A stretch of DNA of 64,000 nucleotides from Ignavibacteriota bacterium (GCA_016707525.1 JADJHP010000001.1:702103-766102); one strand, 5' to 3'. Counted from the stretch's first letter, positions 14,087 through 60,262 are shown. A program made the numbers and translations. The notes: generated by a model from the sequence alone, not told the origin.

Positions 14087-16002
14087 CTATCCGACGGTGA
14101 GTGAGGATGAGGGATGAAGGACCGAGCGGACGACCGCTGCGATCCCGGGGCCATCCAACCCGAGTTCATCAGCAAGTTCCGCAGGAGATCCGTGGTCTAC
14201 GAAACGGTCAGGGATGCCGTGCATCGTAAGGCGGGTACCCGCATGACCGGCTGCTGCGACGAATTCGCTGACCGCGCCGCCAAATCCGCCCAGGACAGAG
14301 TTGTTCTCGACCGTGACGATGGCCTTGAACCGCGAGAGAATGTCGTCCAGCAACGCCCCGTCCAGCGGCTTCACAAAGCGCATGTTCACGACCTCGCATT
14401 CGATGCCTTCATGCGCCAATGCCGTCGCCGCCTGCAACGACGGCGCAACCATGTCTCCGATCGCCAGGATCGCGACATCCTTCCCGGTCCGGAGGATCTC
14501 CCCTTTGCCGACCGGCAACAATGTGAAATCCGGCTTCAGGGGCACACCCAGACCGTTGCCGCGTGGATAGCGTATCGCCACCGGCCCGCCCGTATGCTTC
14601 ACGGCGGTGTACAGCATGTCCCGCAATTCGCTCTCATCCTTCGGCGCCATGATCACCATGCCCGGAATGGGGCGCAAATAGCTCAGGTCGAACACGCCGT
14701 GATGCGTCGGGCCGTCGGCCCCGACCACCCCCGCTCGGTCAAGAGCGAAGATCACGTGCAGATGCTGCAACGCCACATCGTGGATGATCTGATCGAACGC
14801 ACGTTGGAGGAACGATGAGTAGATCGCAACGATCGGGATCGCACCCTGGGTGGCGAGTCCCGCAGCGAAGGTCACGCCGTGCTGCTCCGCGATCCCGACA
14901 TCATAGAAACGTTCGGGCATCTCACGCTGCAATTGGTCGAGGCCGGTCCCATCCGGCATCGCCGCGGTCATCGCAACAAGGTTCGGTGTCTGCCGGGCAA
15001 GGTCGACCACCGCGGTACCGAACACTTTGGTGTACGCCGGCGGCCCGCTGGCTTTCTTCGGCGACACGCCCGTCACCTTGTCGAACGGTGTCACACCGTG
15101 CAGCCGCTGTTCGTCCAGCTCGGCGGGACGATACCCCTTCCCCTTCTGCGTGATCGCATGGACGAGGATCGGTCCCGACAGGTCCTTCACCTCCTGAAAG
15201 ATACGGACGAGCTGCGCCATGTTGTGGCCATTGATGGGTCCGAAGTATCGGAAACCCAGGGCCTCGAAGAGCATGCCCGGCGTGATGATGACCTTGATGC
15301 CTTCTTCGAGCCGCGCCGTCACGCGGCGGATCCGGTCGCCCCACTGTCCAGCTTGCCCGTGAGATCGTACACATTCTTCTTGAAACGGTTGTAGCGCGGA
15401 TCGGCGATCAGCTCGGTGAAATAGTTCGAGATCGCCCAGACGTTCGGGGCGATGGACATGTTGTTGTCGTTCAACACGACGATCATGTCCTTCTTCATGA
15501 AGCCGGCATTGTTCATCCCTTCATACACCATGCCGCCGGTCATGGAGCCGTCGCCGACGATCGCCACAACTTTGTACTTCTTGCCGGACGTTTCCCGTGC
15601 GGCGACCATACCGACGGCGGCCGAGATGGCCGTACTGGCGTGGCCAGCACCGAAGGTGTCGTATTCGCTCTCCGAACGCTTGAGGAAGCCGCTCAGTCCG
15701 TTGTACTGGCGGATCGTATGGAGCCGGTCCTTGCGGCCGGTGAGGATCTTGTGCGGATAGGCCTGATGCCCGACATCCCACACCAATTTGTCGTACGGTG
15801 TGTTGAACACATAGTGCAGGGCAACGGACAACTCCACAGCGCCCAGACCGGCACCAAGGTGCCCCCCCGTCCTGGAGATGACCTCGATGAGGAATTCCCG
15901 CACATCGTTGCTGAGGCCTTTGAGTTCAGGGACCGTGAATCCGCGGAAATCCGCGGGCACGTTCACCCTGTCAAGGTACGGATATGATTGCTGACCGCTC
16001 AT
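14087..16002 (-). CDS. dxs: 1-deoxy-D-xylulose-5-phosphate synthase, interrupted by a 1-nt frameshift near 15320 (N-terminal 227 aa and C-terminal 411 aa in different frames).
   Basis: N-terminal ORF has the TPP-binding region GHLGAGLGAVELSVALHYVF and GDGSMTGGMVYEGMNNAG. C-terminal ORF (GTG start overlapping the first ORF's TGA) carries the transketolase pyrimidine and C-terminal domains. Both parts belong to one Dxs. Confidence 0.8.
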
Positions 16003-18266: not shown

Positions 18267-18704
18267 ATGCCGTCCCTGCACCCCATGCTTGTCCACTTTC
18301 CGGTGGCGCTCCTCACGGTAGGATGGCTCGCGGACCTTTTCGCGTACGTTCGGGGGAGGAAACAAGGAAGCGTTGTAGGGTGGTGGAACGCGGTCGCGGG
18401 AACAGCAGGAGTGCTGGCATCGGCTGCCAGTGGCCTCATGGCAAAGAGTGCCGCGGGTGCGCTGCCGGTGATGCCGGCAGCGGCCCTGTCAGATCATGAA
18501 CAACTCGCCTTCGCCTCGTCCGTGGCATTCCTCCTGCTCACCGGGTGGCGGTTCTCGTGCCGGCGCGAGCTCCCGCCGGGATCACCGCAACTCTTCCTTC
18601 TTCTCACCGGCGCGGCTCTCCTCCTGCTCTGGATCACGGCGCACATCGGTGGCACTCTCGTGCACGAATTCGGCGTCGGGGTCATCGCTGCTCCCCGACC
18701 GTAA
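18267..18704 (+). CDS. DUF2231-like membrane protein (4 TM).
   Basis: N-terminal HPMLVHFPVALL motif and four predicted TM helices. Family assignment is from memory. Confidence 0.45.
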   Translation: MPSLHPMLVHFPVALLTVGWLADLFAYVRGRKQGSVVGWWNAVAGTAGVLASAASGLMAKSAAGALPVMPAAALSDHEQLAFASSVAFLLLTGWRFSCRRELPPGSPQLFLLLTGAALLLLWITAHIGGTLVHEFGVGVIAAPRP

Positions 18705-20408
18705 CGCCCCCGACCGGATCCCGCGCACCTTGACATCGCCGGCCCGCCGCACGATCGTGACCGCCACACCAACGAGCAGAATGATCAATCCGGCCCACAC
18801 AAGATTGATGAGCGGCTTGACACTCGCCTCGGCGACCAGCATCTCACGTGACGCCCCTGACGCTGCCGCCCCGGACTCTTCCAGCCCGAGGGGCGCAAGG
18901 TAAAAGTCCCGGTCTTTCAGGTTCGCAATATCCGGGTTACGCATCACGTTCTGCATGTACTCGCTGTTGAACATGATCGGCGACAACGTGATCGCGTGCC
19001 CTTCCTTCTCGACCCGCACATCGAACCTGAATTTTCCGTCCTCGGTCGGCCGCTGTCCCATATACGTCAGGGTGTAGCCGAGTGCCTGCGTCGGTGTTCC
19101 CAGGGGAAGCGACACCGTCTCGGTCCCGCCGAACCGCGAGGACGACACGAACCCGAGGAACATGACCGCCATACCGATGTGGGCGACCGCCCCGCCGGCC
19201 ATCTTCGGATTCCCCTTCACGATGGTCCAACCGGCCATCAGGTTCACCACGAGCGCGAACGAGGCGCCAAACACGAACAGTATGAGGAGCGGGTCTCGGG
19301 AACCGGCATACAGCATGACGGGCACCGACAGCAATGCGACTCCTGCCGGGATGAGAAGTGTGCGGAGCAGCGCCGACCGGTCCGAGCGTGTCCACCAGAG
19401 GAGCTGCCCGAGTCCCATCAGCAGTCCCAGGAGGATCCCGAGCGGGACGATCGTGGTGGCATAGTACGAGATATCGACGGCACTTTTCTTTCCATACAGC
19501 ACCTCGGTGATGATCGGCGACGAGGTGCCGACGATCACGAACACGGCGATGAAGACGAGGGTCGAGGCTCCCAGGAACAGCGCGAATTCGCGCGAGTAGA
19601 TGCTGTGTTTCGCCGGACGCCGCGGGATCTCCTTCCACCGTCGCACGAAGAGGACGATGGGCGCACCGATGGTGATGATCAGCATGCCGATCAGGAGCCA
19701 GTATGCTGCCATGCCGGGCTCCCCGAAGGAATGCACCGACGTGTCGCCGAGGACACCGCTCCGGGTCAGGAACGTCGAATACACGACCAGGATGAAGCAG
19801 AGCATGCCAAGTTTCAACAGAGCAGCCATTGCATAGGAATACGGCACAGCCATCGATGCAAATCCGCTGAAGAGGACCTGCGGGTGGATCACCATCCAGT
19901 AATTCTGCAGGAGGGGGTTCAGGCCCCGTCCATCGGCCGGAACGAATCCGGGTCCGACCTCGGCGAAGGATTCCCAGACGTACAGGAACGGGTTCTTCAC
20001 GAGCAGCATCACGAGCAGAATGAGTTCGATGCCCATGAACACACTCATCACCTGAGCTTCGTAGCCGACGCGCGAGGAATGGCGGAGGAGAAAGATGCCG
20101 ATCACCGCAGTGAACAGCGCCCAGAGGAGGAAGCTGCCCTCCTGCCCTGCATAGAACGTCGAGATCAGGAGGGGTGTGGAGAGCGCGCGTGAGCTGTAGC
20201 TCCACACGTACGAGTACTGGAATTGATGGGTGAGGATGAGGTACAACAGAGTTGCGGCACTGGCGGCGACCATCACCACCGTGCCGTGGAAGAAGAGACG
20301 TCCGAAGAGGAGTGACCGGTCCGTGGCTTTGAGGTGATGCCGGATGTAGCCGGCGACCGAGAGTAGGGCGAACACGAATGCGACCTTGACGAATATGCCG
20401 CCGAGCAT
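18582..20408 (-). CDS. ccmF: Cytochrome c-type biogenesis protein CcmF, atypical: lacks the WWD/TM-His1 segment. Its 3' end overlaps the convergent DUF2231 ORF.
   Basis: Conserved CcmF blocks FYAGQEGSFLLW, GRGLNPLLQNYWMVIHPQVLF, LTRSGVLGDTSVHSFGEP and GGAVAHIGMAVMFLGF are present. The ~85-90 aa that normally carry WGGxWFWDPVEN and the first TM heme-b His are absent (in-frame). SD AGGAG lies 8 nt upstream. Confidence 0.75.
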   Translation of the reverse strand: MLGGIFVKVAFVFALLSVAGYIRHHLKATDRSLLFGRLFFHGTVVMVAASAATLLYLILTHQFQYSYVWSYSSRALSTPLLISTFYAGQEGSFLLWALFTAVIGIFLLRHSSRVGYEAQVMSVFMGIELILLVMLLVKNPFLYVWESFAEVGPGFVPADGRGLNPLLQNYWMVIHPQVLFSGFASMAVPYSYAMAALLKLGMLCFILVVYSTFLTRSGVLGDTSVHSFGEPGMAAYWLLIGMLIITIGAPIVLFVRRWKEIPRRPAKHSIYSREFALFLGASTLVFIAVFVIVGTSSPIITEVLYGKKSAVDISYYATTIVPLGILLGLLMGLGQLLWWTRSDRSALLRTLLIPAGVALLSVPVMLYAGSRDPLLILFVFGASFALVVNLMAGWTIVKGNPKMAGGAVAHIGMAVMFLGFVSSSRFGGTETVSLPLGTPTQALGYTLTYMGQRPTEDGKFRFDVRVEKEGHAITLSPIMFNSEYMQNVMRNPDIANLKDRDFYLAPLGLEESGAAASGASREMLVAEASVKPLINLVWAGLIILLVGVAVTIVRRAGDVKVRGIRSGALRSGSSDDPDAEFVHESATDVRRDPEQEESRAGEKKEELR

Positions 20409-20489
20409 AGGGACTCCTGCTGATGGAAAGAACGGAACCGCTCACACCGGGAGGCCGTCTGACGACGGCCCTCCCCGCTCACTGCACTG

Positions 20490-20885
20490 TCACGATGCCT
20501 TGCCCGTGACCTCTGCCCCCGTGGCCTCGTACTTCGATGGGCACTTCGTGAGAACCTCCGAGGCGTGGAAGGAGCCGTCGCCGGTGAACTTCCCCTTTGC
20601 GACGACACTCGTTGCCATCTCGAAATTGTTCGGCGCCGCGCCGTCCAGCACCACCTTGCACTCGCGTCCGGCATCATCCACCAGATAGAACGTGAACTGG
20701 CTCGTGGAGGGATTGAACGCGGAGTCCTTCTCCCGGTTCCACGTGCCTTTCAACTGGACCTTCTTGTTCTTCGCCATGGCTCCGGCGATGTCGGTATATT
20801 CCACGTTGCTGTCCATGAACGAATACGCCCCGAACCCGAGGAAGACCAGTACCACGATGGACCCGATGATCATTTTAGCATTCAT
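20490..20885 (-). CDS. ccmE: Heme chaperone CcmE, CxxxY variant.
   Basis: N-terminal TM anchor and OB-fold. C-terminal VLTKCPSKYEA aligns to canonical VLAKHDEKYmP, so Cys (codon 20541..20543) replaces the heme-binding His. Confidence 0.8.
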   Translation of the reverse strand: MNAKMIIGSIVVLVFLGFGAYSFMDSNVEYTDIAGAMAKNKKVQLKGTWNREKDSAFNPSTSQFTFYLVDDAGRECKVVLDGAAPNNFEMATSVVAKGKFTGDGSFHASEVLTKCPSKYEATGAEVTGKAS

Positions 20886-20901
20886 ATGACGCTCCTCCCT
20901 T

Positions 20902-21045
20902 CTACCCGTTGTTCTCAGTGGTACGTTCCAGTTTTTTCAAGCGTCCATCGAGGCGCCAGAGATAGGCGAACAGGCCCAGCCAGATCCCGACCACGATGAT
21001 CATGACGATGTACAGCTGATGTTCGGCAAGGAACTCCACGGTCAT
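20902..21045 (-). CDS. ccmD: Heme exporter protein CcmD (47 aa). Not in the ORF track because it is under 60 aa.
   Basis: MTVEFLAEHQLYIVMIIVVGIWLGLFAYLWRLDGRLKKLERTTENNG: single TM, CcmD-like. Its ATG overlaps the ccmC stop (ATGA). Confidence 0.55.
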   Translation of the reverse strand: MTVEFLAEHQLYIVMIIVVGIWLGLFAYLWRLDGRLKKLERTTENNG

Positions 21046-21740
21046 CCTTTCGACTGATGATGATACTCAAGCAACGCGGCGCGCACGCGCAGCGTGAACA
21101 TCCAGATAAAGAGCAGCGTGAAGGCGAAGAGCGACGTGAAGAACACCATGCGCATGCCCGGCGACATCTTGAACTCGATCACCGGCCCCGCGCCATCGGG
21201 GTCGCCCGCCGCACCGGGATGCAGCCCCGTCATGATGCGCGGCATGATGAACACGAAGAATGGGACCGTCACGGCGGCGATGATCGAATAGACGGCGGAG
21301 AGCGTTGCGCGCTTTTCTTCCACCTCCACTGCCGAACGGAGCGCGAAGTAGGCGCCGTAGATCAGGAGCAGCACGAAGATCGATGTCTCACGGGGATCCC
21401 AGTTCCAGAACGAACCCCAGTTGAACTTCGCCCAGATCATTCCTGTCACCGTCGCCAGGATGCAGAACAGGAGCCCCAGTCCCGCTGCTGCCGAGGACCG
21501 GAGGTCATCCCGGATATCGCGTTTCCGGAGATAGCGGATCCCGTAGAACATCCCGGTGAAGAACGCCATGACGCTCAGCCATGCCGTCGGGACATGGAAG
21601 AAGATGATGCGGGCCTTTTCTTCGAGGCCGGGGATGAAGGGGAACTCCAGCAGTGATGTCGGCGCCGGGACGATGGGGAGTGCAAAAGCGGCAACGATCA
21701 CCAGCGTGAGAAGGATACCGAGAAGAATCCGCCACACCAT
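21042..21740 (-). CDS. ccmC: Heme exporter protein CcmC.
   Basis: WWD domain WGSFWNWDPRETS and flanking conserved His residues; 6 TM. Confidence 0.85.
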   Translation of the reverse strand: MVWRILLGILLTLVIVAAFALPIVPAPTSLLEFPFIPGLEEKARIIFFHVPTAWLSVMAFFTGMFYGIRYLRKRDIRDDLRSSAAAGLGLLFCILATVTGMIWAKFNWGSFWNWDPRETSIFVLLLIYGAYFALRSAVEVEEKRATLSAVYSIIAAVTVPFFVFIMPRIMTGLHPGAAGDPDGAGPVIEFKMSPGMRMVFFTSLFAFTLLFIWMFTLRVRAALLEYHHQSKG

Positions 21741-21742
21741 AC

Positions 21743-22438
21743 TCAGTCTTTCCAGATGTACTCAAAGAGCATATACGACGCAGTCACCACGACGACAATA
21801 TACGAAATCAGGACCTGAAATTCACCCCCGACATCCGTCCATGCGGTCCCCTCGCAGGCCATCCGGGTGGTCCGGATCGCGGTCATCAGGACAGGTAACA
21901 ATATTGGGAACGATAAAACGGGGTAGAGGGTTCCCTTCGTGTTCGCCCGCGCAATGATCGCAGCGATGATCGTCGATGCCGCAGAGAGCCCGATGCTTCC
22001 CAGCGCGATCCCGGCCGCGAACACCCCGTAGGAGGTGACGACGAATCCGGAGATGAACACCGCGTACAGTGCCACGGTCAGAAGCGTCAGGCCGGCACCG
22101 AGCAGCAGATTGAAGAGCAGCTTCCCGAAATAGACGGCACTCGGTGGCGCCTGCAACTGCAGCGTCATCGAGGTCCCACGCTCTTCCTCCATGACGAACG
22201 TCCTCGACAGGCCGGACATCGCCGCGAAGAAGATCACCACCCAGAGCATCCCGGCAAGCACCTCGAGCGACGGGGCCTCACCGGCAAGCGAGAACATGAT
22301 CATCGAGAGGGTGGTGACGACGAACATTCCGAGCGCACTGATCGCGTACCGCGTGCGCAATTCCGAGCGCCAATCCTTGAGAAACACCGCAAGGGTGGAC
22401 CGTAGCCACCGGCCGGCAGAGCGTTCAACGGCGGGCAT
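21743..22438 (-). CDS. ccmB: Heme exporter protein CcmB (ABC permease).
   Basis: CcmB-family 6-TM permease (FLKDWRSELRTRYA...). Start at the internal Met (22438), overlapping the ccmA 3' end; the track ORF's upstream extension is rich in W/R/C and unlikely to be coding. Confidence 0.75.
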   Translation of the reverse strand: MPAVERSAGRWLRSTLAVFLKDWRSELRTRYAISALGMFVVTTLSMIMFSLAGEAPSLEVLAGMLWVVIFFAAMSGLSRTFVMEEERGTSMTLQLQAPPSAVYFGKLLFNLLLGAGLTLLTVALYAVFISGFVVTSYGVFAAGIALGSIGLSAASTIIAAIIARANTKGTLYPVLSFPILLPVLMTAIRTTRMACEGTAWTDVGGEFQVLISYIVVVVTASYMLFEYIWKD

Positions 22439-23054
22439 TGAGATCCACCTCCCTGTCCGGTGCCGCGAGATCCGTCCTGTCGTTGGTTGCCACCACCAGG
22501 ATCCCCTCGCGCAATTGATCCTGCATGATCCCGCGTACGATCGCGATGCCATCGGCGTCCAGGTTCGACATGGGTTCATCCAGCACAAGCACCGGTGGCC
22601 GGTGTATCAGCGCCATGGCATATTTCAACCGCTGCTTCATCCCGGAGGAAAATCCGCGGACAGGGTCCGTGCGCTTCGGGTCGAGAGCGACCTGTTCCAA
22701 CAGCTGCGATGCGCGTCCATCATCCGGCCGGGCTCCCCGGAGGGTCATGCTCATGTGGAGGTTCTCCATTGCCGAGAACTCCTCATACACCTGGAGATAC
22801 GGTGCGACCAGACCGAGGCGGCCCAGCACCGCGAAATGATCGCCGGCATCATCCGCGTGCACGGTGACCCTGCCCGATGTGGGCGTCAGTACGCCGCAGA
22901 GGATCTTGATGAGCGTCGATTTCCCTGCCCCGTTCCGGCCGGCGATCATCAGGGAGTGGCGCGCGTGCACATCGAACGACACGTCCCGGAATATCAGCTT
23001 CCTGTTGAACGAGTGCCGGATATTCTCACCGCTGATGTGTAGCGCCACGCTCAC
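22425..23054 (-). CDS. ccmA: Heme ABC exporter ATP-binding protein CcmA.
   Basis: Walker A GRNGAGKST; ABC signature FSSGMKQRLKYA; Walker B VLVLDEP. Confidence 0.8.
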   Translation of the reverse strand: MSVALHISGENIRHSFNRKLIFRDVSFDVHARHSLMIAGRNGAGKSTLIKILCGVLTPTSGRVTVHADDAGDHFAVLGRLGLVAPYLQVYEEFSAMENLHMSMTLRGARPDDGRASQLLEQVALDPKRTDPVRGFSSGMKQRLKYAMALIHRPPVLVLDEPMSNLDADGIAIVRGIMQDQLREGILVVATNDRTDLAAPDREVDLNARR

Positions 23055-24721
23055 CTCCTCACCAGTGCGATCTTGCCCGTCACCCGCCTGTCCCCGAGGT
23101 CGATCACGTAGATGTAGATGCCGGATGGGACCGCGGATCCATCCGTTCCCTTGCCATCCCAGAAGAACATCTGGCGGTCCAGATACCAGGACGACGAACT
23201 TGTCCCGGACGTGTAGACCGGGTCCAGCCCGCTGGAGAAGACGGATACGCTGCCGGTGACCTGATCCGTGCCATCCACCGGCATGGCCGCACGCGCGTGG
23301 TTCCCCGGCAAGAACGGATTCGGGAAGGCCCGGCCTTCGGCAAATTGCGACGCATCGATGTTCCGTCGGACGGTGTCGCCTACGACGAACCAGCTCGCCC
23401 AGTGCACGGGCGTGGCGACGCCGAGATGTGCGAACAGTCCGATCGGTGTTATGCGGTATCCGTCATTCGGCCGCGTCGACCGGAAATCGAATGCGTAATC
23501 CTTCCCCGCCGCTTGTGCCGTCGCGGCAGCAAGGTCCACGTTCGCCACGATCACGGTCATGGTATCCGGGGACCGCATGAGCTGATAATACCGCGCAGCG
23601 AACGGTGCGAGGCTCCCGGTGATCTCGCGCGAGGGAGGCCTGTACTCCACCGGGATCTCCATCATCAAAGGATAGTCCGCGGCGTCCGGATAGTACTTCG
23701 AGGGCTCGCTGCGTGTCCCGGTGAAATGATTCCACAAACTCCAATCGGCGAAGGCTCCCTGCGCATCATACCCTTTCGTTCTCAGCGCCCTGTCGATCGC
23801 CGCCATCGGCGCCATCGCGCGGATCTGCTCCCAGGTCGTTCGCATCATATCGCGCCCGTACCGTGCGGCGATGTAATGCCCCCAGATGCTCCGGCTATAG
23901 CAGATCAGGTCGTTGGAAGTGAACGCCCTCTCCGGTGTCCGGAAATGCCCCCAGGACGCCTTCAGGTATTCGTAGTAATCGTTGACCTCCGGATACAGCA
24001 CATCCTCCATCCATGTGGATGTGATCTCATAGAAGAACACGTCGTTCTGCCAATACCCGTAGTTGCCGATCTGGAGGGCATGATGCAACTCGTGCGCGAT
24101 CGTGACGTGCAATGCAGGGAGCCCACGGTTCACGGCCGGATGGACGAACGCGTAGTCGTTGTCGATGGTCATGAACGTGGTCGCCGTCCCGCCATCCGGC
24201 GGGGAGCCATCCGGCGTCGTGTATCCGTACATGCTTCCCAGTTCCATGATGAAGACATCGTATTCCGGGCCCCCGTTCAACGTATCGTCGGACGGAAGGA
24301 CGCCATACCCGAGCACCTGTGTCTCGATCGGTGCCACGTACGCCAGGCTCGCGAAGACGGAGTCCACATAGGCGCGTGCAGTTCCGGGCACCGCCGCGCC
24401 GGTGCCATCGAGCAGCGTGGGCGTGTTGAACCCCGTGGTATCGAAATGCACGCGGAACCCGGAACGGACCAGGCTGGTCTGCAGGAGTGGACGCGACAGC
24501 ATCGTGGATGCGGCACCTGCCAGCACGCGTCCTTTCACGCTCAGCGCGTTGGTCACGGCAGAGAGGCCGCATTTAATCGGCTCACCTTCGGGGGGCAACT
24601 GAGCGCTGTTCCCGAGCAATTGCGCGGCGGCATCATGCACCATGCTTCGCTCCTGCGCGTGCGCGGTGAGGGCACACGCGCCGAGGATGCAAAGCGCAGA
24701 CAGGAGCCGGAGTGTGATCAT
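23051..24721 (-). CDS. Secreted HExxH zinc metallopeptidase-like protein with a T9SS C-terminal sorting domain.
   Basis: Signal peptide MITLRLLSALCILGACALTAHA. HELHHALQ...(22 aa)...E fits a HEXXH-X(n)-E zincin pattern. C-terminal ~80 aa (...SGIYIYVIDLGDRRVTGKIALVRR) matches the T9SS CTD consensus. 4-bp overlap with ccmA. Confidence 0.55.
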   Translation of the reverse strand: MITLRLLSALCILGACALTAHAQERSMVHDAAAQLLGNSAQLPPEGEPIKCGLSAVTNALSVKGRVLAGAASTMLSRPLLQTSLVRSGFRVHFDTTGFNTPTLLDGTGAAVPGTARAYVDSVFASLAYVAPIETQVLGYGVLPSDDTLNGGPEYDVFIMELGSMYGYTTPDGSPPDGGTATTFMTIDNDYAFVHPAVNRGLPALHVTIAHELHHALQIGNYGYWQNDVFFYEITSTWMEDVLYPEVNDYYEYLKASWGHFRTPERAFTSNDLICYSRSIWGHYIAARYGRDMMRTTWEQIRAMAPMAAIDRALRTKGYDAQGAFADWSLWNHFTGTRSEPSKYYPDAADYPLMMEIPVEYRPPSREITGSLAPFAARYYQLMRSPDTMTVIVANVDLAAATAQAAGKDYAFDFRSTRPNDGYRITPIGLFAHLGVATPVHWASWFVVGDTVRRNIDASQFAEGRAFPNPFLPGNHARAAMPVDGTDQVTGSVSVFSSGLDPVYTSGTSSSSWYLDRQMFFWDGKGTDGSAVPSGIYIYVIDLGDRRVTGKIALVRR

Positions 24722-26941
24722 TGCGAGAACGCCCCCGCGTGCACGGTGAGGGTATGTTTCCGTGGATGACTGAGGACGACGTCAAGCAGTCCGGTGACCG
24801 GCGAGATCCGAAGCCCAAAGTGCTCCGCCCCGTGCGCCGGCAGGACAAGGACGGGCTCGGAGAAGCGCCTGTGCCCGAGGCCGAACAACGCGTAGACCCC
24901 GTCCCGCGCACCATCCATGTAGACAACGTCGGCCCGGCCGTCTCCGTTCACATCGCGGACAACCATGCCATCCTCATCGATCGGATCGATGCCTTCGACC
25001 ACGATGGGGTCCAGCTGCACGCTTCCCCCCGAATCGCCATACGCAACGTACATCCTGCGCGAGGGTGCGCCGGTGAACATCAAAAGGTCAGGAAGACTGT
25101 CGCCATCAACGGCGCCGCTCCCCAACAGCTTGATGCTCAGGGTCGAGTCAGGCAGAGTGACCAGGCGCTGGATCTTTCGAAAGTCATAATTCGCCTGCGC
25201 CGGCGCCAATGCGACCGACGACGCTCTGGGCGGACGTTCGCGGAACGCCAGAACGACGTCCGGCTTGCCATGTCCCGCGAAGGACCCGGAGGCCATCGAG
25301 GTGATCGTCACAGGCAGGGAAAAGCGGTACGAGCGTTCCACGAACTGCTGGCCGGAGATCTCCTGATACAACAGAAGTGGTGGCTTGCCGGACGTACCGT
25401 TGCCACTTCTGATCCCTATGACGAGCCGCCCTGTGATGCGGTCGGTCTCGGCCATCAGGAACCGGGGTCCCGGCGGTGTAGGAACCATCAGGACGCGGGA
25501 GCGTTCGAAGCGTTCGGCGCGACGGATGACGCCGATCTGATCCGTCGTCGGATCCACCGTCACGATCGTCCACGGACGCGGGAATTCTCCGGGTACGACG
25601 CGGACATCTTCAGGCTCACCCGGCACGGTAAGTGTCCGTTGCCCGAAGAGCCTGCCTGGCGTCGTCCCTTCGAACAGACCGATGCTCGCCGACCCATTGT
25701 TGGCGACGAGGATATCCTCGACACCATCGCCTGTCCAGTCCGTCACGGTCACCGCTGCCGGCCGCACTCCGGTGGCATACTCCGCGGGCCACGCTGCAAG
25801 GCCGGTTTGCTGTGCATTCCCGAGGATGACGATACGACGATCGCGTTCATCAGCAAGGACAATGTCGGTCTTCCGGTCACCGTCCACATCTGCGAGCGTC
25901 CACGACGGGCTTCCGGCGCCGGCGCCGAACAGTGTGAGTGGCCCGAACGTGGTGCTTGTTGTACCCAGTGCCACAGCGAGACCATTCGTCGTACTCACGA
26001 CCATATCCGGAAGCTGGTCTTCGTTGACGAGCGCAAAACTGACGGCACCGGGATGACCGGAGAGCGGGATCGTATCCCGGAGCACGAGTTCCCCTGCCGG
26101 ATTGCCAACGACATGGAGCACGGCATTGTTCGCAGGAAGGGTCACGAGGAAGCGCAGCACCTGTTTTCGTTGCACGGGCATGAATGCGATGCGGCCCGGC
26201 TCACCGGGAAGTGCGAGCGTCACCTGTTCGGAGAACTGATATTGACCGATCCCGAAGTACACCGCAAGCCGGTCCGAGAGCCATTGCACGAGCACGAGGT
26301 CCATGATCCTGTCGCCGTTCAGGTCTGCGGCCACCAGGTCGCCGGCCGACGTCTCCGGAAAGAGCAACGGCCCCTGCTTGAACGAACCGTACCGTCCCCC
26401 CCACGAGGGTGCCCACCCCCGCCATATTCCTGCCGAAATAGAGAATGTCTTTCCTCCCATCGTTGTCGATGTCGGCAACGACGAGGCGTTGTGCACGCTG
26501 GTCGAGACGGAACAGCGTACGTTGCCCCTGTCCTTCTCCGGGCCGCTGTATCTCGATGTGGCTCCCATCTTCGCTGAGGATGACCAGCTCTTCATTGCCA
26601 TCCGCATCGATATCGGCGAGCGACAGAAAGCCGGGCTGGCGAGCAGTGGCATACGAGGCCACCGCCACGCAATGCCCGCCGGAGGTCAGAGAATATTCAT
26701 CCACGCCGGTGCGCCCGTTGTATGCGACCAGGATGGTCGGCAATGGTGCGAGTGCTGAGACATGCACTGCGACAGCGACGGGAACGCCGGGGGTACCGGT
26801 TTCAACGTACGGGCCGAAGGATACGCCGGAGCGCTGCGAATACGCGGCGTACGCCCAGAACAGATGAGCCGCGAACACGCCCATGACGAGGTCACGTGAG
26901 CTACGGATGCGGTGCTGCAATGTGCTGTACGGTGCAACCAT
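24718..26941 (-). CDS. FG-GAP/VCBS-repeat (integrin-alpha-like) secreted protein, split by a frameshift at a C7/G7 homopolymer (~26396..26402).
   Basis: Signal peptide MGVFAAHLFWAYAAYS. Repeated DxDxDGxxD-type motifs (ADIDADGNEELVIL, VADIDNDGRKDILYFG, AADLNGDRIMDLVLV, ADVDGDRKTDIVLA, VNGDGRADVV). The two ORFs 26201..26941 and 24718..26652 are consecutive parts of one protein. Confidence 0.6.
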
Positions 26942-31126: not shown

Positions 31127-32357
31127 CTACTCCCATCGGATGGCCTGCACGGGCGTGAGGCTGGCAGCCCGCCGTGCAGGATACAAGGATGCAAGAAAAC
31201 TGAGGAGCATGGACGCGCCCGCAACGGCAATGAAATCGGTCCACCGCACCTCGACCGGGATCGCCGGTATGATATAGACGGTCGGATCAAGGGGGAACAG
31301 GCCGAACCTGATCTGCAGATAGCACACGAACAGACCCCAGCACCGACCCCAGGACGGTCCCGAGCGTACCGACCAGCAGCCCTTCCACCATGAAGATGCG
31401 CAGGATGCTGCTGCGTGTCGCCCCGAGCGCCTTCAAGACCCCGATGTCCCGGCGCTTCTCGATCACGCCCATCGTCAGAGACCCCAGCACATTGAATGAC
31501 GCGACGCCGACGATCAGACAGAGGATGATGTACGCGGTCCACCGCTCGATCTGCATCACCGAATACAGGTCCTTGTGCAGGTCGAACCACGTCGACACGC
31601 GGTATGCCGGACCCAGGGCCTTCTGCAGGTCGTCGCGCGTCTCGTCCGACACCTCGATCGTGTGCAGCCGTACATCGACACCGTTCACCGTGCCATCCAT
31701 CTGGAAGATCTCGCGTGCGGTCTCGAGGGAGACGAACGCATAGTGGGCATCATAGTCCTTGTTGTTCGAATCGTAGATGCCCCGCACCGCGCACGGGCGG
31801 ATGATGGGATCGCTCAGCTGCACCATCATGGCATCCACGCCCACAGGACTGAGGATCGCGAGCTGTGCATCGACCATCGTCCCCATCCTGTCCGCGAGTG
31901 TCTGCCCCAGGACAACACCCGACTCGCCGGGGGTATCACCGAACGCGAACGCTCCGAGGACCGTCCGTTGCTTCACTCCGGAGACCCCCTCGATGGTCGA
32001 ATCGACCACGCCCTTGACCATCACGACCTTATGCATCCTGTTCGCGATCATCAATGCCTTCCCCGCGATGTAGGGAGCGGCAGCAGCAACGCGGGGGTCA
32101 CGCCGGACCACATCCAGCACGCTGTCGGTCGAGGCCAGGGACGGCCCGCTGGCCGCCTCGATGCGGAGATGGGGGTCGAAACCCACCAGGACCTTCGTCA
32201 CCACGCTGTTGAAGCCATTGAACACGGACAGCACGATGATCAGCGCGGCAACGCCGACGGTGATGCCGATGATGGACACGAGCATGATGATATTGATGAA
32301 GCGGATCTGCCGCTTCGACCGCACCAGCCGGGCCGCTATGAACCGTTCAAAGTACAT
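31127..32357 (-). CDS. LolC/E-family lipoprotein-release permease (FtsX-like), frameshifted near 31333..31340.
   Basis: N-terminal 356 aa (MacB_PCD periplasmic domain plus FtsX TMs) ends ...VLGSVLGSV. The last ~60 aa (CYLQIRFGLFPLDPTVYIIPAIPV...LYPARRAASLTPVQAIRWE) are in another frame (ORF 31127..31327). Confidence 0.65.
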
Positions 32358-54250: not shown

Positions 54251-54871
54251 TCAGCGGATGCCGCGCAAGAGCGTGGCGATCTCCCCTTCGATGCTTTTTC
54301 CCCGGTCGCGGCCGTACCAGAGGTGAAGGCGTTCCAGCCGCTGTTCCTTGGGCACACCACCGGCAAGGGCTTCATCGATCACTGCTTGTGCGCCCACGGG
54401 GCGGGGCCCCCAGGTGCACAGCTCCTCCCCATCGGCATTCCACACAATGAACTTCGGGATGCATCGCTTGCCGCTGGTGAGATAACGGTCCATGATGTCC
54501 GGATTCTCATCACGCACCATCACACGGAACGTGATATCCGCACGCAGAGCGGCGATCCGCGCGAGATACGGAATGATCTGTGCGGAATCCCCGCACCAGA
54601 CCTCGGAGATGACACCCCAGAGTTGGCCACCGGAAAGTGCGTGGACCGTCGCGGTGATCTCTTCGCCGGGCGTATAGCTCCGCGCTATGCGGGACGCGCG
54701 TTGTAGATTGATCGTCGCATACGCCTTGTGCGCCTTGTCGTCCGCTGATGCGTCGGCCGGCAGGGGCGTCTCGTCGTACACGCGCAACCCTTCTTCGTAC
54801 TCTTGATAGGTCTGCGCTATACGGAACCGCGCGGCGACATCGGACACACCCTGACCGCGATCAGCCGACAT
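54251..54871 (-). CDS. Thioredoxin-fold protein (Thioredoxin_9-like).
   Basis: WCGDSAQIIPYL ... KRCIPKFIVW matches a thioredoxin-like fold. Start is uncertain (overlaps the trxA 3' end). Confidence 0.45.
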   Translation of the reverse strand: MSADRGQGVSDVAARFRIAQTYQEYEEGLRVYDETPLPADASADDKAHKAYATINLQRASRIARSYTPGEEITATVHALSGGQLWGVISEVWCGDSAQIIPYLARIAALRADITFRVMVRDENPDIMDRYLTSGKRCIPKFIVWNADGEELCTWGPRPVGAQAVIDEALAGGVPKEQRLERLHLWYGRDRGKSIEGEIATLLRGIR

Positions 54872-55149
54872 GCGGGGCCAGCTTGTCGACCAGACTCCGT
54901 TTCGGCACGGCACCGATGATCTGTTCCACCACCGTGCCGCCCTTGAACACCATGAGCGTCGGGATGCTGCGGATCGCGAACTTCATGGAGGTGTCCGGAT
55001 TGCCGTCCACGTCGAGTTTGACGACCTTGAGTTTACCGTTGTATTCCGCGGCGAGTTCTTCCACCACGGGTGCGATCGTCTTGCACGGGCCACACCACAC
55101 GGCCCAGAAATCGACCAGCACCGGGATCGGGGACTTCAACACTTCAGCT

Positions 55150-58838: not shown

Positions 58839-60259
58839 TCACCGGGGGTTGACAGCCAGGAGCTTACGCTCCGTCATCTCCTCCATTGCATAGCGCACGC
58901 CCTCCCTGCCGAACCCGGAACCTTTGACGCCCCCGTACGGCATATGATCCATCCGGTATGTCGGGACATCATTCACGATCACGCCGCCCACTTCCAGTTC
59001 TTCGAATGCGCGGAGCATGTGCCGGAGATCCGGAGTGAACACTCCTGCCTGCAATCCATACATCGAGTCATTGACCCCCGCCAAGGCCTCATCGAACTCC
59101 GCATACGATCCGACAGTAACGATCGGTGCGAACACTTCCTGAGAGCATACCTTCATGTCCGGGCGAACGTCCGCAAGGATGGTAGGCTCCAGGATGGCGC
59201 CGTGTCGCCGTCCGCCACATAACACTTTCGCACCTCCGGCTATGGCCTCTGTGAGCCATCCCTCCGCCTGTTCAGCAGCCTGCGCGGTGATCATCGGCCC
59301 CACCACGGTATTCACATCCCAGGGGTCGCCGGTTGCCAGGGCCTTCACCTGCGGGACGAGCAGCCCGAGGAATTCTTCTTCGTGCTCCCGGTGCACAAAC
59401 ACCCTCTGCACGGAGATGCAGGATTGGCCTGCATTCGCAAAACCGCCCGCAACCACCTTCCCGGCAGCGAACGCAAGGTCCGCCCCCCGATCAATGATCA
59501 CTCCGGCATTCCCGCCCAATTCCAGCGTCACCCGTTTCTTGCCTGCCCGGGACTTCATCGGCCAACCGATCGCAGGACTTCCCGTGAAGGTGATAAGGGC
59601 AACCCGTTCATCTTCAATGAGTTGACCAGCTTCATCTCCCGCGCAGGGTAGCACTGAAATCATCTCCACAGGAAGGCCACTCTCCAGAATGATCTCCGCA
59701 AAAGGAGTGCCGTCCCGGGCGCGTTCGATGATGGCTTCACCACCACAGGGTTCCCTGTGGCAAAGGCCGGGGCCGCCTTATGCGCCACGAGGTTCAGGGG
59801 GAAATTGAACGGCGTGATGGCTGCGATGGGGCCGATCGGGAAGCGCTTGACGAGGGCGAACCGCCCGGCGGACGCCGCATTCATGTCGAGCGGGAGCATT
59901 TCGCCGTAGATCCTCCCCGCCTCCTCCGCCGCCGTCCGGAATGTGAACTCACTCCTATCGACTTCCATCCTGGACAGCGTGATCGGCTTGCCGGTTTCCC
60001 GGGTGATCATCGCAGCGAGTGCCTCCTTCCGCGCCCCGATGCCCCGCGCGATGGCATAGAGCGCATCCACGCGCTGATGGCTGGCGAGGCTGCGCGACGT
60101 CCGGAATGCACGCACGGCACCGGCGAGGGCGTCGTCAATATCCCGCTTCCCCGCCTGACACACCTCTCCCGCCACCGATCCGTCGAAGGGGTTGAGCACC
60201 GGGCGCGTGTGCGCGGTGGTGCGCCATGCGCCACACACCAGGATCGGTCGGGCCCCCAT
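58839..60259 (-). CDS. Aldehyde dehydrogenase family protein, frameshifted near 59690..59710.
   Basis: N-terminal ORF (VLNPFDGSVAGEV...PVVVKPSSNAPGTALLL) and C-terminal ORF (EMISVLPCAGDEAG...ELGGNAG...GQSCISVQR catalytic Cys...) are contiguous ALDH sequence in different frames. Confidence 0.7.
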
Positions 60260-60262
60260 CGG

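Follow-up and report, generated by a model that had tools for sequence, protein, structure and literature searches.

A probable System I* cytochrome c maturation operon, with an internally deleted ccmF as assembled, in an Ignavibacteriota genome

Gene content of the locus

The DNA analysed here, a 64-kb stretch referred to below as the window and considered on one strand, comes from a metagenome-assembled genome (MAG) of the Ignavibacteriota and carries a cluster of cytochrome c maturation (Ccm) genes. Six minus-strand open reading frames (ORFs) occupy positions 18582-23054 exactly, in the order ccmA-B-C-D-E-F, and were assigned to their families by Pfam and NCBIfam profile matches. The contiguity claimed for these genes in a first-pass annotation of the sequence is thus borne out by the family profiles, and its description of a Cys-type, non-canonical System I with a tiny CcmD corresponds to what has been published as System I*, the CcmD being a 47-aa member of the CcmD_alt family.

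22425-23054, minus strand: ccmA, ABC ATPase, 209-aa ORF (PF00005, 1.2e-26; TIGR01189 ccmA, 6e-31, under the equivalog cut-off)
21743-22438, minus strand: ccmB, haem exporter permease, 231 aa (PF03379 CcmB, 7.6e-20)
21042-21740, minus strand: ccmC, 232 aa (PF01578, 5.9e-25, 88.6 bits; TIGR01191 ccmC, 4.7e-31)
20902-21045, minus strand: ccmD, alternative family, 47 aa (TIGR04391 CcmD_alt_fam, 33.0 bits against a cut-off of 24; PF20077 match)
20490-20885, minus strand: ccmE, 131 aa (PF03100, 5.2e-16, above cut-off)
18582-20408, minus strand: ccmF, internally deleted in frame, 608 aa against 688 aa in intact relatives (PF16327 CcmF_C, 3.5e-31)

The NCBIfam equivalog cut-offs are not reached by CcmA, B, C, E or F (in CcmE, all such scores lie under the cut-off); TIGR01189 is among the best ABC-family matches of the ccmA ORF. 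Relatives have ccmA called at 207 aa, corresponding to a start at 23048, and the ccmB start given above was adopted from the gene calls of relatives (231 aa in the loci L001, L082 and L084). In CcmC the WWD motif, read from the translation, is intact (WGSFWNWDPRETS), the His residues flanking it having been judged by eye only. The small gene between ccmC and ccmE encodes a short single-helix protein that exceeds the cut-off of its family and is labelled 'CcmD family protein' in the NCBI record; it is an ordinary member of CcmD_alt (TIGR04391/PF20077), so that nothing is notable about its size.

The genes are closely packed: ccmA and ccmB overlap by 14 nt, ccmB and ccmC are separated by 2 nt, and ccmC and ccmD share an ATGA overlap, followed by spacers of 16 nt between ccmD and ccmE and of 81 nt between ccmE and ccmF. 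Translational coupling, proposed earlier for the entire operon, therefore holds for the A/B, B/C and C/D junctions, that is from ccmA to ccmD, and fails for D/E and E/F. The ccmE-ccmF spacer contains an imperfect GC-rich hairpin without a T-run at 20447-20475 on the minus strand (GGGAGGGCCGTC / GACGGCCTCCC). It was discarded as a stable structure, since the 81-nt spacer has no folding advantage over shuffled sequence (z = -1.23).

A cysteine at the haem-binding position of CcmE

20541-20543, minus strand: Cys115 of CcmE, TGC codon, aligned with the haem-binding His130 of E. coli CcmE

The CcmE sequence reads ...EVLTKCPSKYEATG, with its C-terminal end at ...EVLTKCPSKYEATGAEVTGKAS. The motif KCPSKY comprises residues 114-119, placing Tyr119 four residues past Cys115. 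In phmmer alignments to chains of solved structure, Cys115 pairs with the His of HDENY in the CcmE proteins of Shewanella (1J6Q) and E. coli (1SR3, 8CE8_E), as well as with the Cys of the Cys-type CcmE of Desulfovibrio vulgaris (2KCT). Of the canonical HxxxY motif (His130 and Tyr134 in E. coli), only the Tyr is kept, and no canonical His was seen, which confirms the first-pass claim of a Cys at the position of the haem-binding His. Because Cys115 aligns with that His, the protein belongs to the Cys-type (CcmE*) subgroup and not to the His-type.

The AlphaFold (AF2) model of CcmE, with a predicted local distance difference test score of 76, shows an N-terminal helix (residues 3-26) followed by an OB-type beta-barrel, the tail being of low confidence from directly after Cys115. 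Both this model and the PF03100 match describe a periplasmic OB-fold domain held at the membrane by one N-terminal anchor. The first Foldseek match in the PDB is 8CE8_E; 1LM0/1J6Q, 1SR3 and 2KCT are also found, interspersed with OB-folds of the RPA type, and the superposition on 2KCT gives a TM-score, normalised to the target, of 0.71 and a root-mean-square deviation of 2.2.

CcmE contains a second cysteine, Cys76 (20656-20658), in the OB-fold stretch ...GRECKVV..., which is invariant in 22 of the 22 closest aligned homologues. A role as conserved redox partner of Cys115 was considered and rejected, as Cys76 is found in only 12 of 63 wider loci.

An 80-residue gap in CcmF

19811-19813, minus strand: junction of a 240-nt deletion in ccmF, between ...CTGTTGAAA and CTTGGCATG...

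The ccmF gene had been taken as intact in the first-pass annotation, which it is not: 80 residues including the WWD domain are missing. The nearest CcmF relatives are 677-691 aa long (P0002 with 98% identity, the following ones with 88-64%), compared with 608 aa in the window, and hold 80 additional residues between K199 and L200 (RDYDYWYKPAMPWIAFGVFVLGLGIMMGGYWAYETLGWGGYWAWDPVENSSLVPWLFAVALVHTILSQRRSGAFARTNLV), 69 of which are present in P0003. At the nucleotide level, blastn alignments to L001, L084, L085 and L086 break at 19811-19813, leaving 241 bases of the subject, including an ambiguous one, without a match; relative to L001, exactly 240 nt (80 aa, in frame) are absent. The NCBI protein MBK7256797.1 ('MAG: hypothetical protein IPI01_03050 [Ignavibacteriae bacterium]') is identical to the 608-aa protein and shows the same gap, its neighbours being named CcmE, CcmD family protein and CcsA; the deletion is therefore a property of the deposited assembly and not only of the window.

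The missing 80 aa correspond to two membrane helices, the WWD motif between them, and TM-His1, the first membrane haem-b histidine, which lies in the ALVHTIL helix of the relatives. In agreement with this, the alignment to the Thermus thermophilus CcmF structure (6ZMQ) skips from query residue 198 (chain residue 212) to query residue 203 (chain residue 297), so that residues ~213-296 of 6ZMQ are without equivalent. The Cytochrom_C_asm profile (PF01578) reaches 20.4 bits against a cut-off of 29.9, over profile positions 5-98 of 212, compared with 102.3 bits for the intact relative P0002. Hence neither the WWD haem-handling domain (WGGxWxWDPVEN) nor the full set of four CcmF histidines is found: P-His1 (H175, in IHP), P-His2 (H226, in SVHSF) and H410 (in AHIG, aligned to TM-His2 of 6ZMQ) are kept, and TM-His1 is lost with the deleted segment. 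The rest of the CcmF topology is unaffected and the C-terminal domain is present (PF16327 over residues 241-553). Beyond the CcmF_C domain the protein carries a charged tail of 55 aa.

In CcmF, the haem received from CcmE is held in the WWD site, and haem b has TM-His1 and TM-His2 as its ligands. Judged on these grounds, the protein as assembled, without WWD domain and TM-His1, should be inactive as a synthetase.

Real allele or artefact

Two explanations of the deletion, a real strain-specific loss-of-function allele and an assembly or consensus error of an error-prone long-read MAG, seem to us about equally probable. If the allele is real, the strain would have no System I* synthetase activity and would either live without c-type cytochromes or use a second CcmF/NrfE paralogue or another system outside the window; even odds may be given to this version. 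It is favoured by the presence of the deletion in the deposited MAG and by a length that is an exact multiple of three, although an in-frame length has a one-in-three chance anyway. Single long-read errors, moreover, typically are 1-nt homopolymer indels, as they occur elsewhere in the window, and not gaps of 240 nt, and additional stand-alone ccmF-like genes do lie beside multihaem cytochromes in the relatives L030, L031, L037, L042 and L047. A further point is the sequence next to the junction:

19815-19923, minus strand: divergent patch with 15 substitutions, almost all synonymous, relative to ~99%-identical relatives

This patch of ~110 nt stands directly 5' of the junction and on that side only; the 3' side is identical and divergence elsewhere amounts to ~1%. 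The Poisson expectation for an equally dense patch anywhere in the compared 11.5 kb is ~0.001. The patch looks like a genuine divergent (foreign) allele and not like sequencing noise, its tract ending at the junction as would happen in a recombination with an illegitimate end.

Against a real allele it has to be said that six independent same-species contigs, 98.3-99.4% identical to the window over the shared parts, carry the segment (L001, L084, L085 and L086 span all 240 nt, L091 and L092 run into it), and that WxWDPVEN is present in all 80 of the more distant CcmF genes. Scans of the metagenome contigs of the Joint Genome Institute (JGI) returned 0 matches for the deletion junction (degenerate 32-mer) and likewise 0 for the window-specific divergent patch (30-mer), and thus provide independent support neither for the allele nor for an intact version of the patch allele. 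Losing all c-type cytochromes would, in addition, be costly for a respiring member of the Ignavibacteriota.

The competing explanation, to which we give the same weight, is an artefact of assembly, polishing or strain mixing, in which case the organism would, as its relatives do, possess an intact System I* operon of the ordinary type. This MAG alone has the deletion allele, and the window shows consensus errors: relative to 3-4 independent short-read contigs of this species, it has homopolymer indels of 1 nt at 31338, 29628, 26402 and 15346, the third of which splits an FG-GAP gene (26201-26941 and 24718-26652) and the last dxs (15319-16002 and 14087-15520), and an aldehyde dehydrogenase gene (58839-60262) is divided into two ORFs as well. 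The homopolymer indels look like long-read consensus errors, and other 'pseudogenes' in the window should therefore be distrusted; errors of this kind in essential genes bear on any other finding from the window. At just this point of ccmF, furthermore, the short-read contigs L090, L091 and L092 stop or pass to another haplotype, which indicates strain heterogeneity of a sort that can confuse assemblers and polishers. On the other hand, no direct repeats flanking the 240 nt were found, so that nothing supports slippage, or a collapse of the assembly, at a repeat; apart from the 240-nt gap only single-base indels distinguish the window from relatives over ~20 kb; and the adjoining divergent patch respects codon structure.

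Two further peculiarities of this gene region should be recorded. In the ccmF gene encoding P0003 (L082, 10001-12034; NCBI GCA_030835135.1), 33 nt are missing in frame just ahead of the WWD motif, exactly between direct repeats (GGCGGGTAYTGGGC), a lesion probably due to slippage or assembly collapse. L090, L091 and L092 end, or switch to a more divergent haplotype, near nt 480-600 of ccmF (window ~19813-19925), which suggests a strain-level mosaic or recombination boundary within the gene.

Search for ccmH, ccmG and other cytochrome c genes

All sizeable ORFs of the window were scanned for CxxCH and CxxC motifs, and most of them also against Pfam. By motif and/or Pfam, neither CcmH nor a WCxxC thioredoxin (CcmG/ResA/TlpA), DsbD/CcdA, ResB or a second CcsA/CcmF was detected among them. 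For comparison we used the best 80 of more than 595 loci from a CcmF-profile scan, limited to one genome per species, or 81 loci when L001 is counted: within ±4 kb of the operon none of the 81 contains a ccmH- or ccmG-like gene, as judged by a motif screen followed by Pfam analysis of ten candidates. The first-pass statement that no ccmG or ccmH follows ccmF accordingly holds in the window and beside the related operons.

Several candidates were rejected in the course of this search. The sole thioredoxin fold in the window, a Thioredoxin_9 protein (54251-54982, PF14595), does not qualify as CcmG, as it has a monothiol WCGDS site and no evident export signal; ORFs with [LIVM][RK]CxxC or WCxxC motifs near the ccm clusters of relatives proved to be HMA, FtrD-like/zinc-ribbon or transposase proteins, or had no family match. 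Stand-alone ccmF/nrfE-like genes without ccmABCD were observed in L030, L031, L036, L037, L042 and L047 (Ignavibacteriota and Bacteroidota), several of them adjoining ORFs with 4-14 CxxCH motifs; they may be dedicated lyase paralogues.

The search covered 64 kb of the genome, and ccmH, a ccmG/resA-like gene and ccdA could reside elsewhere on the 845-kb contig or in the genome and work together with the operon, in which case the system would not be free of CcmH and CcmG. TlpA/ResA-type thiol-disulfide oxidoreductases and CcdA are generally common in this group of bacteria, which speaks for this explanation, as does the observation that about one third of the bacteria with a variant, Cys-type CcmE have CcmH (PMC3601427). 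The empty search of the window and of the 81 operon neighbourhoods, together with the monothiol nature of the one thioredoxin-fold protein, argue in the opposite direction, and on balance we regard an unlinked CcmH/CcmG set as possible, if rather unlikely. Considerably less credible is that the ccmF deletion is real and c-type cytochromes are nevertheless matured, the CcmF remnant without WWD domain and TM-His1 being bypassed, for instance by direct transfer from Cys-CcmE or by a paralogous NrfE-like lyase, or that the population has gone over to a life without c-type cytochromes.

Conservation in the lineage

A readable ccmE lies beside ccmF in 63 of the related loci, L001 included, and KCPSKY is present in all 63, with Cys and Tyr invariant. 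Among the best CcmE homologues listed, LTKCPSKY is found in 120 out of 120, down to ~66% identity, in MAGs of Ignavibacteriota and Bacteroidota. The related loci share the gene order ccm(A)BC(D)EF and come from Ignavibacteriota (including Ignavibacterium album and Melioribacter), Bacteroidota (including Chitinophagales and Cytophagales, and the cultured Fulvivirga imtechensis, Spirosoma terrae and Arcicella rigui), Rhodothermales, Kryptoniota, Chlorobiales and others. Close relatives retain the whole neighbourhood, which runs from BamD/YfiO, 4HBT, FG-GAP and the putative DUF6055 HExxH protease through ccmABCDEF to DUF2231 and PIG-L on the opposite strand, followed by xseAB and dxs; the core of it (FG-GAP, DUF6055, ccmABCDEF, DUF2231, PIG-L) persists from 45% to 99% CcmF identity. 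GC content is flat over the region. The conserved neighbourhood and the flat GC content therefore favour vertical inheritance over recent acquisition.

Based on these sequences, the group of Bacteroidota, Ignavibacteriota and Kryptoniota seems to form a large System I* reservoir that is uniformly of the CPSKY type, has no operon-linked CcmH or CcmG and is not listed in the reviews consulted. Our literature search found no paper discussing a Cys-type Ccm variant in Bacteroidota or Ignavibacteriota; the databases, for their part, already hold the CcmD_alt family, and the NCBI annotation already names the CcmE and CcmD proteins. The opinion expressed in the first-pass annotation, that a Cys-CcmE system without CcmH is unusual for a high-GC bacterium with a type IX secretion system (T9SS), and with it a possible horizontal acquisition, is favoured by the hosts named in the literature searched (archaea and, according to PMC3601427, the bacterial delta-proteobacteria, Chloroflexi and Firmicutes), which do not include this group, and is very improbable in the face of a motif shared by all 63 loci from several phyla or classes and by all 120 listed homologues, of the synteny retained at 45-99% CcmF identity and of the even GC content.

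A probable System I* operon and its presumed mode of action

Taken together, the comparisons make it very probable that the region is a ccmABCDEF operon of the System I* type, with a CPSKY CcmE and a CcmD of the short alternative kind, and that it was inherited as the arrangement normal for the Ignavibacteriota and for relatives in the Bacteroidota group; as assembled, its ccmF carries an internal deletion. System I* is characterised by a Cys-type CcmE, mostly with CPSKY (Stevens et al. 2011, PMC3601427), to which haem is covalently bound at the Cys by an inferred thioether (Stevens et al. 2011, PMC3601427; Gupta et al. 2022, PMC9084895). A thioether-type CcmE-haem intermediate, brought up for this operon in the first-pass annotation, is thus already part of the published interpretation of System I*.

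Among the closest characterised counterparts is the system of Desulfovibrio desulfuricans and D. vulgaris (Allen et al. 2006 and Goddard et al. 2010, as summarised in PMC3601427), which has no CcmH or CcmG and is nevertheless functional in E. coli (PMC3601427). Like the window operon, it combines a Cys in CPSKY at the place of the haem-binding His with an operon that lacks both ccmH and ccmG, and with the presence of CcmD, and its CcmE (2KCT) is matched by the OB-fold of the model. In contrast to it, the host here belongs to the Ignavibacteriota and not to the sulfate-reducing delta-proteobacteria, the CcmD is a short protein from the CcmD_alt family, a ccmI-like gene was not observed, and the assembled ccmF is without the WWD domain. 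In Methanosarcina acetivorans, CcmE carries no haem unless the Cys of CxxxY is present, and CcmABCEF are enough (Gupta et al. 2022, PMC9084895). The window operon shares with this archaeal system the CxxxY CcmE and the lack of CcmH and CcmI in the operon, and the archaeal CcmF acts without CcmH; the archaea, however, lack CcmD, their CcmF is split into F1 and F2 and their genes are dispersed, whereas the window has CcmD and a single ccmF in one operon. With canonical System I (E. coli CcmABCDEFGH; structures 8CE8 of CcmABCDE and 6ZMQ of T. thermophilus CcmF) the operon has in common the homologous CcmA-F proteins, the intact WWD motif of CcmC, the CcmE OB-fold with its C-terminal xxxY, and in CcmF both periplasmic His residues and TM-His2; it differs in Cys115 instead of His130, in the absence of ccmG and ccmH from the operon, and in a CcmD of 47 aa that belongs to a different family. 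In the cultured relative Melioribacter roseus, CcmF has been detected in the proteome together with active cytochrome-dependent oxidases (PMC5492636).

By homology, CcmC together with CcmD would load haem onto CcmE, a chaperone with an OB-fold and a membrane anchor, in which Cys115, replacing the canonical His, would serve as the covalent attachment residue and Tyr119 as axial ligand. CcmAB would then release holo-CcmE at the expense of ATP, and CcmF alone, without CcmH, would take the haem into its WWD site and ligate it to CxxCH apocytochromes. With a ccmF that has neither the WWD loop nor TM-His1, this final ligation step would be blocked in the sequence as assembled.

Several points weigh against this interpretation. 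The proposed mechanism rests on homology to the characterised Ccm systems, including those of Desulfovibrio and Methanosarcina. The finding that CcmG, CcmH and CcdA are missing refers to the operon, the 64-kb window and the neighbourhoods of the relatives (±10 kb) rather than to the whole genome, a distinction of some importance given the one third of variant bacteria that do have CcmH. No CxxCH protein, that is no c-type cytochrome, is encoded by the window ORFs, so the window offers no substrate for the system. Finally, the operon as assembled is without a functional synthetase, and a statement that it works like System I* therefore describes the intact version of the lineage.

On this assignment, a large bacterial group, well beyond archaea and sulfate reducers, has the Cys-type, CcmH-less Ccm system as its standard machinery, and cultured Cytophagales and Melioribacter offer tractable bacterial models of a CcmF that works without CcmH. 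General caution is advisable at the level of the individual MAG: the operon is complete by gene names and its synthetase is without a catalytic domain, so calls of cytochrome c maturation for this MAG would be wrong or at least unverified. Whether the deletion is real or an error, this sequence does not justify scoring the capacity as present unless the reads are checked.

Flanking genes

23051-24721, minus strand: putative HExxH metalloprotease (MXAN_6640/DUF6055) ending in a C-terminal tail of the T9SS type (NF045524, 5.9e-56; PF19527), context only
18267-18704, plus strand: convergent DUF2231 membrane-protein gene (PF09990, 5e-19), context only

The start of ccmA overlaps or abuts the stop of the DUF6055 gene. 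In 25 related loci, among them those of I. album and Kryptonium, DUF6055 is likewise the immediate upstream neighbour of ccmA. The FG-GAP and DUF6055 genes together cover 23051-26941 upstream of ccmA in the window, and this deeply conserved linkage also occurs in L002-L039. At the other end of the operon, the DUF2231 gene and the final ~40 codons of ccmF share ~122 nt (18582-18704). L082 and L084 show the same overlap, and in 13 loci a DUF2231 gene is located downstream of ccmF.

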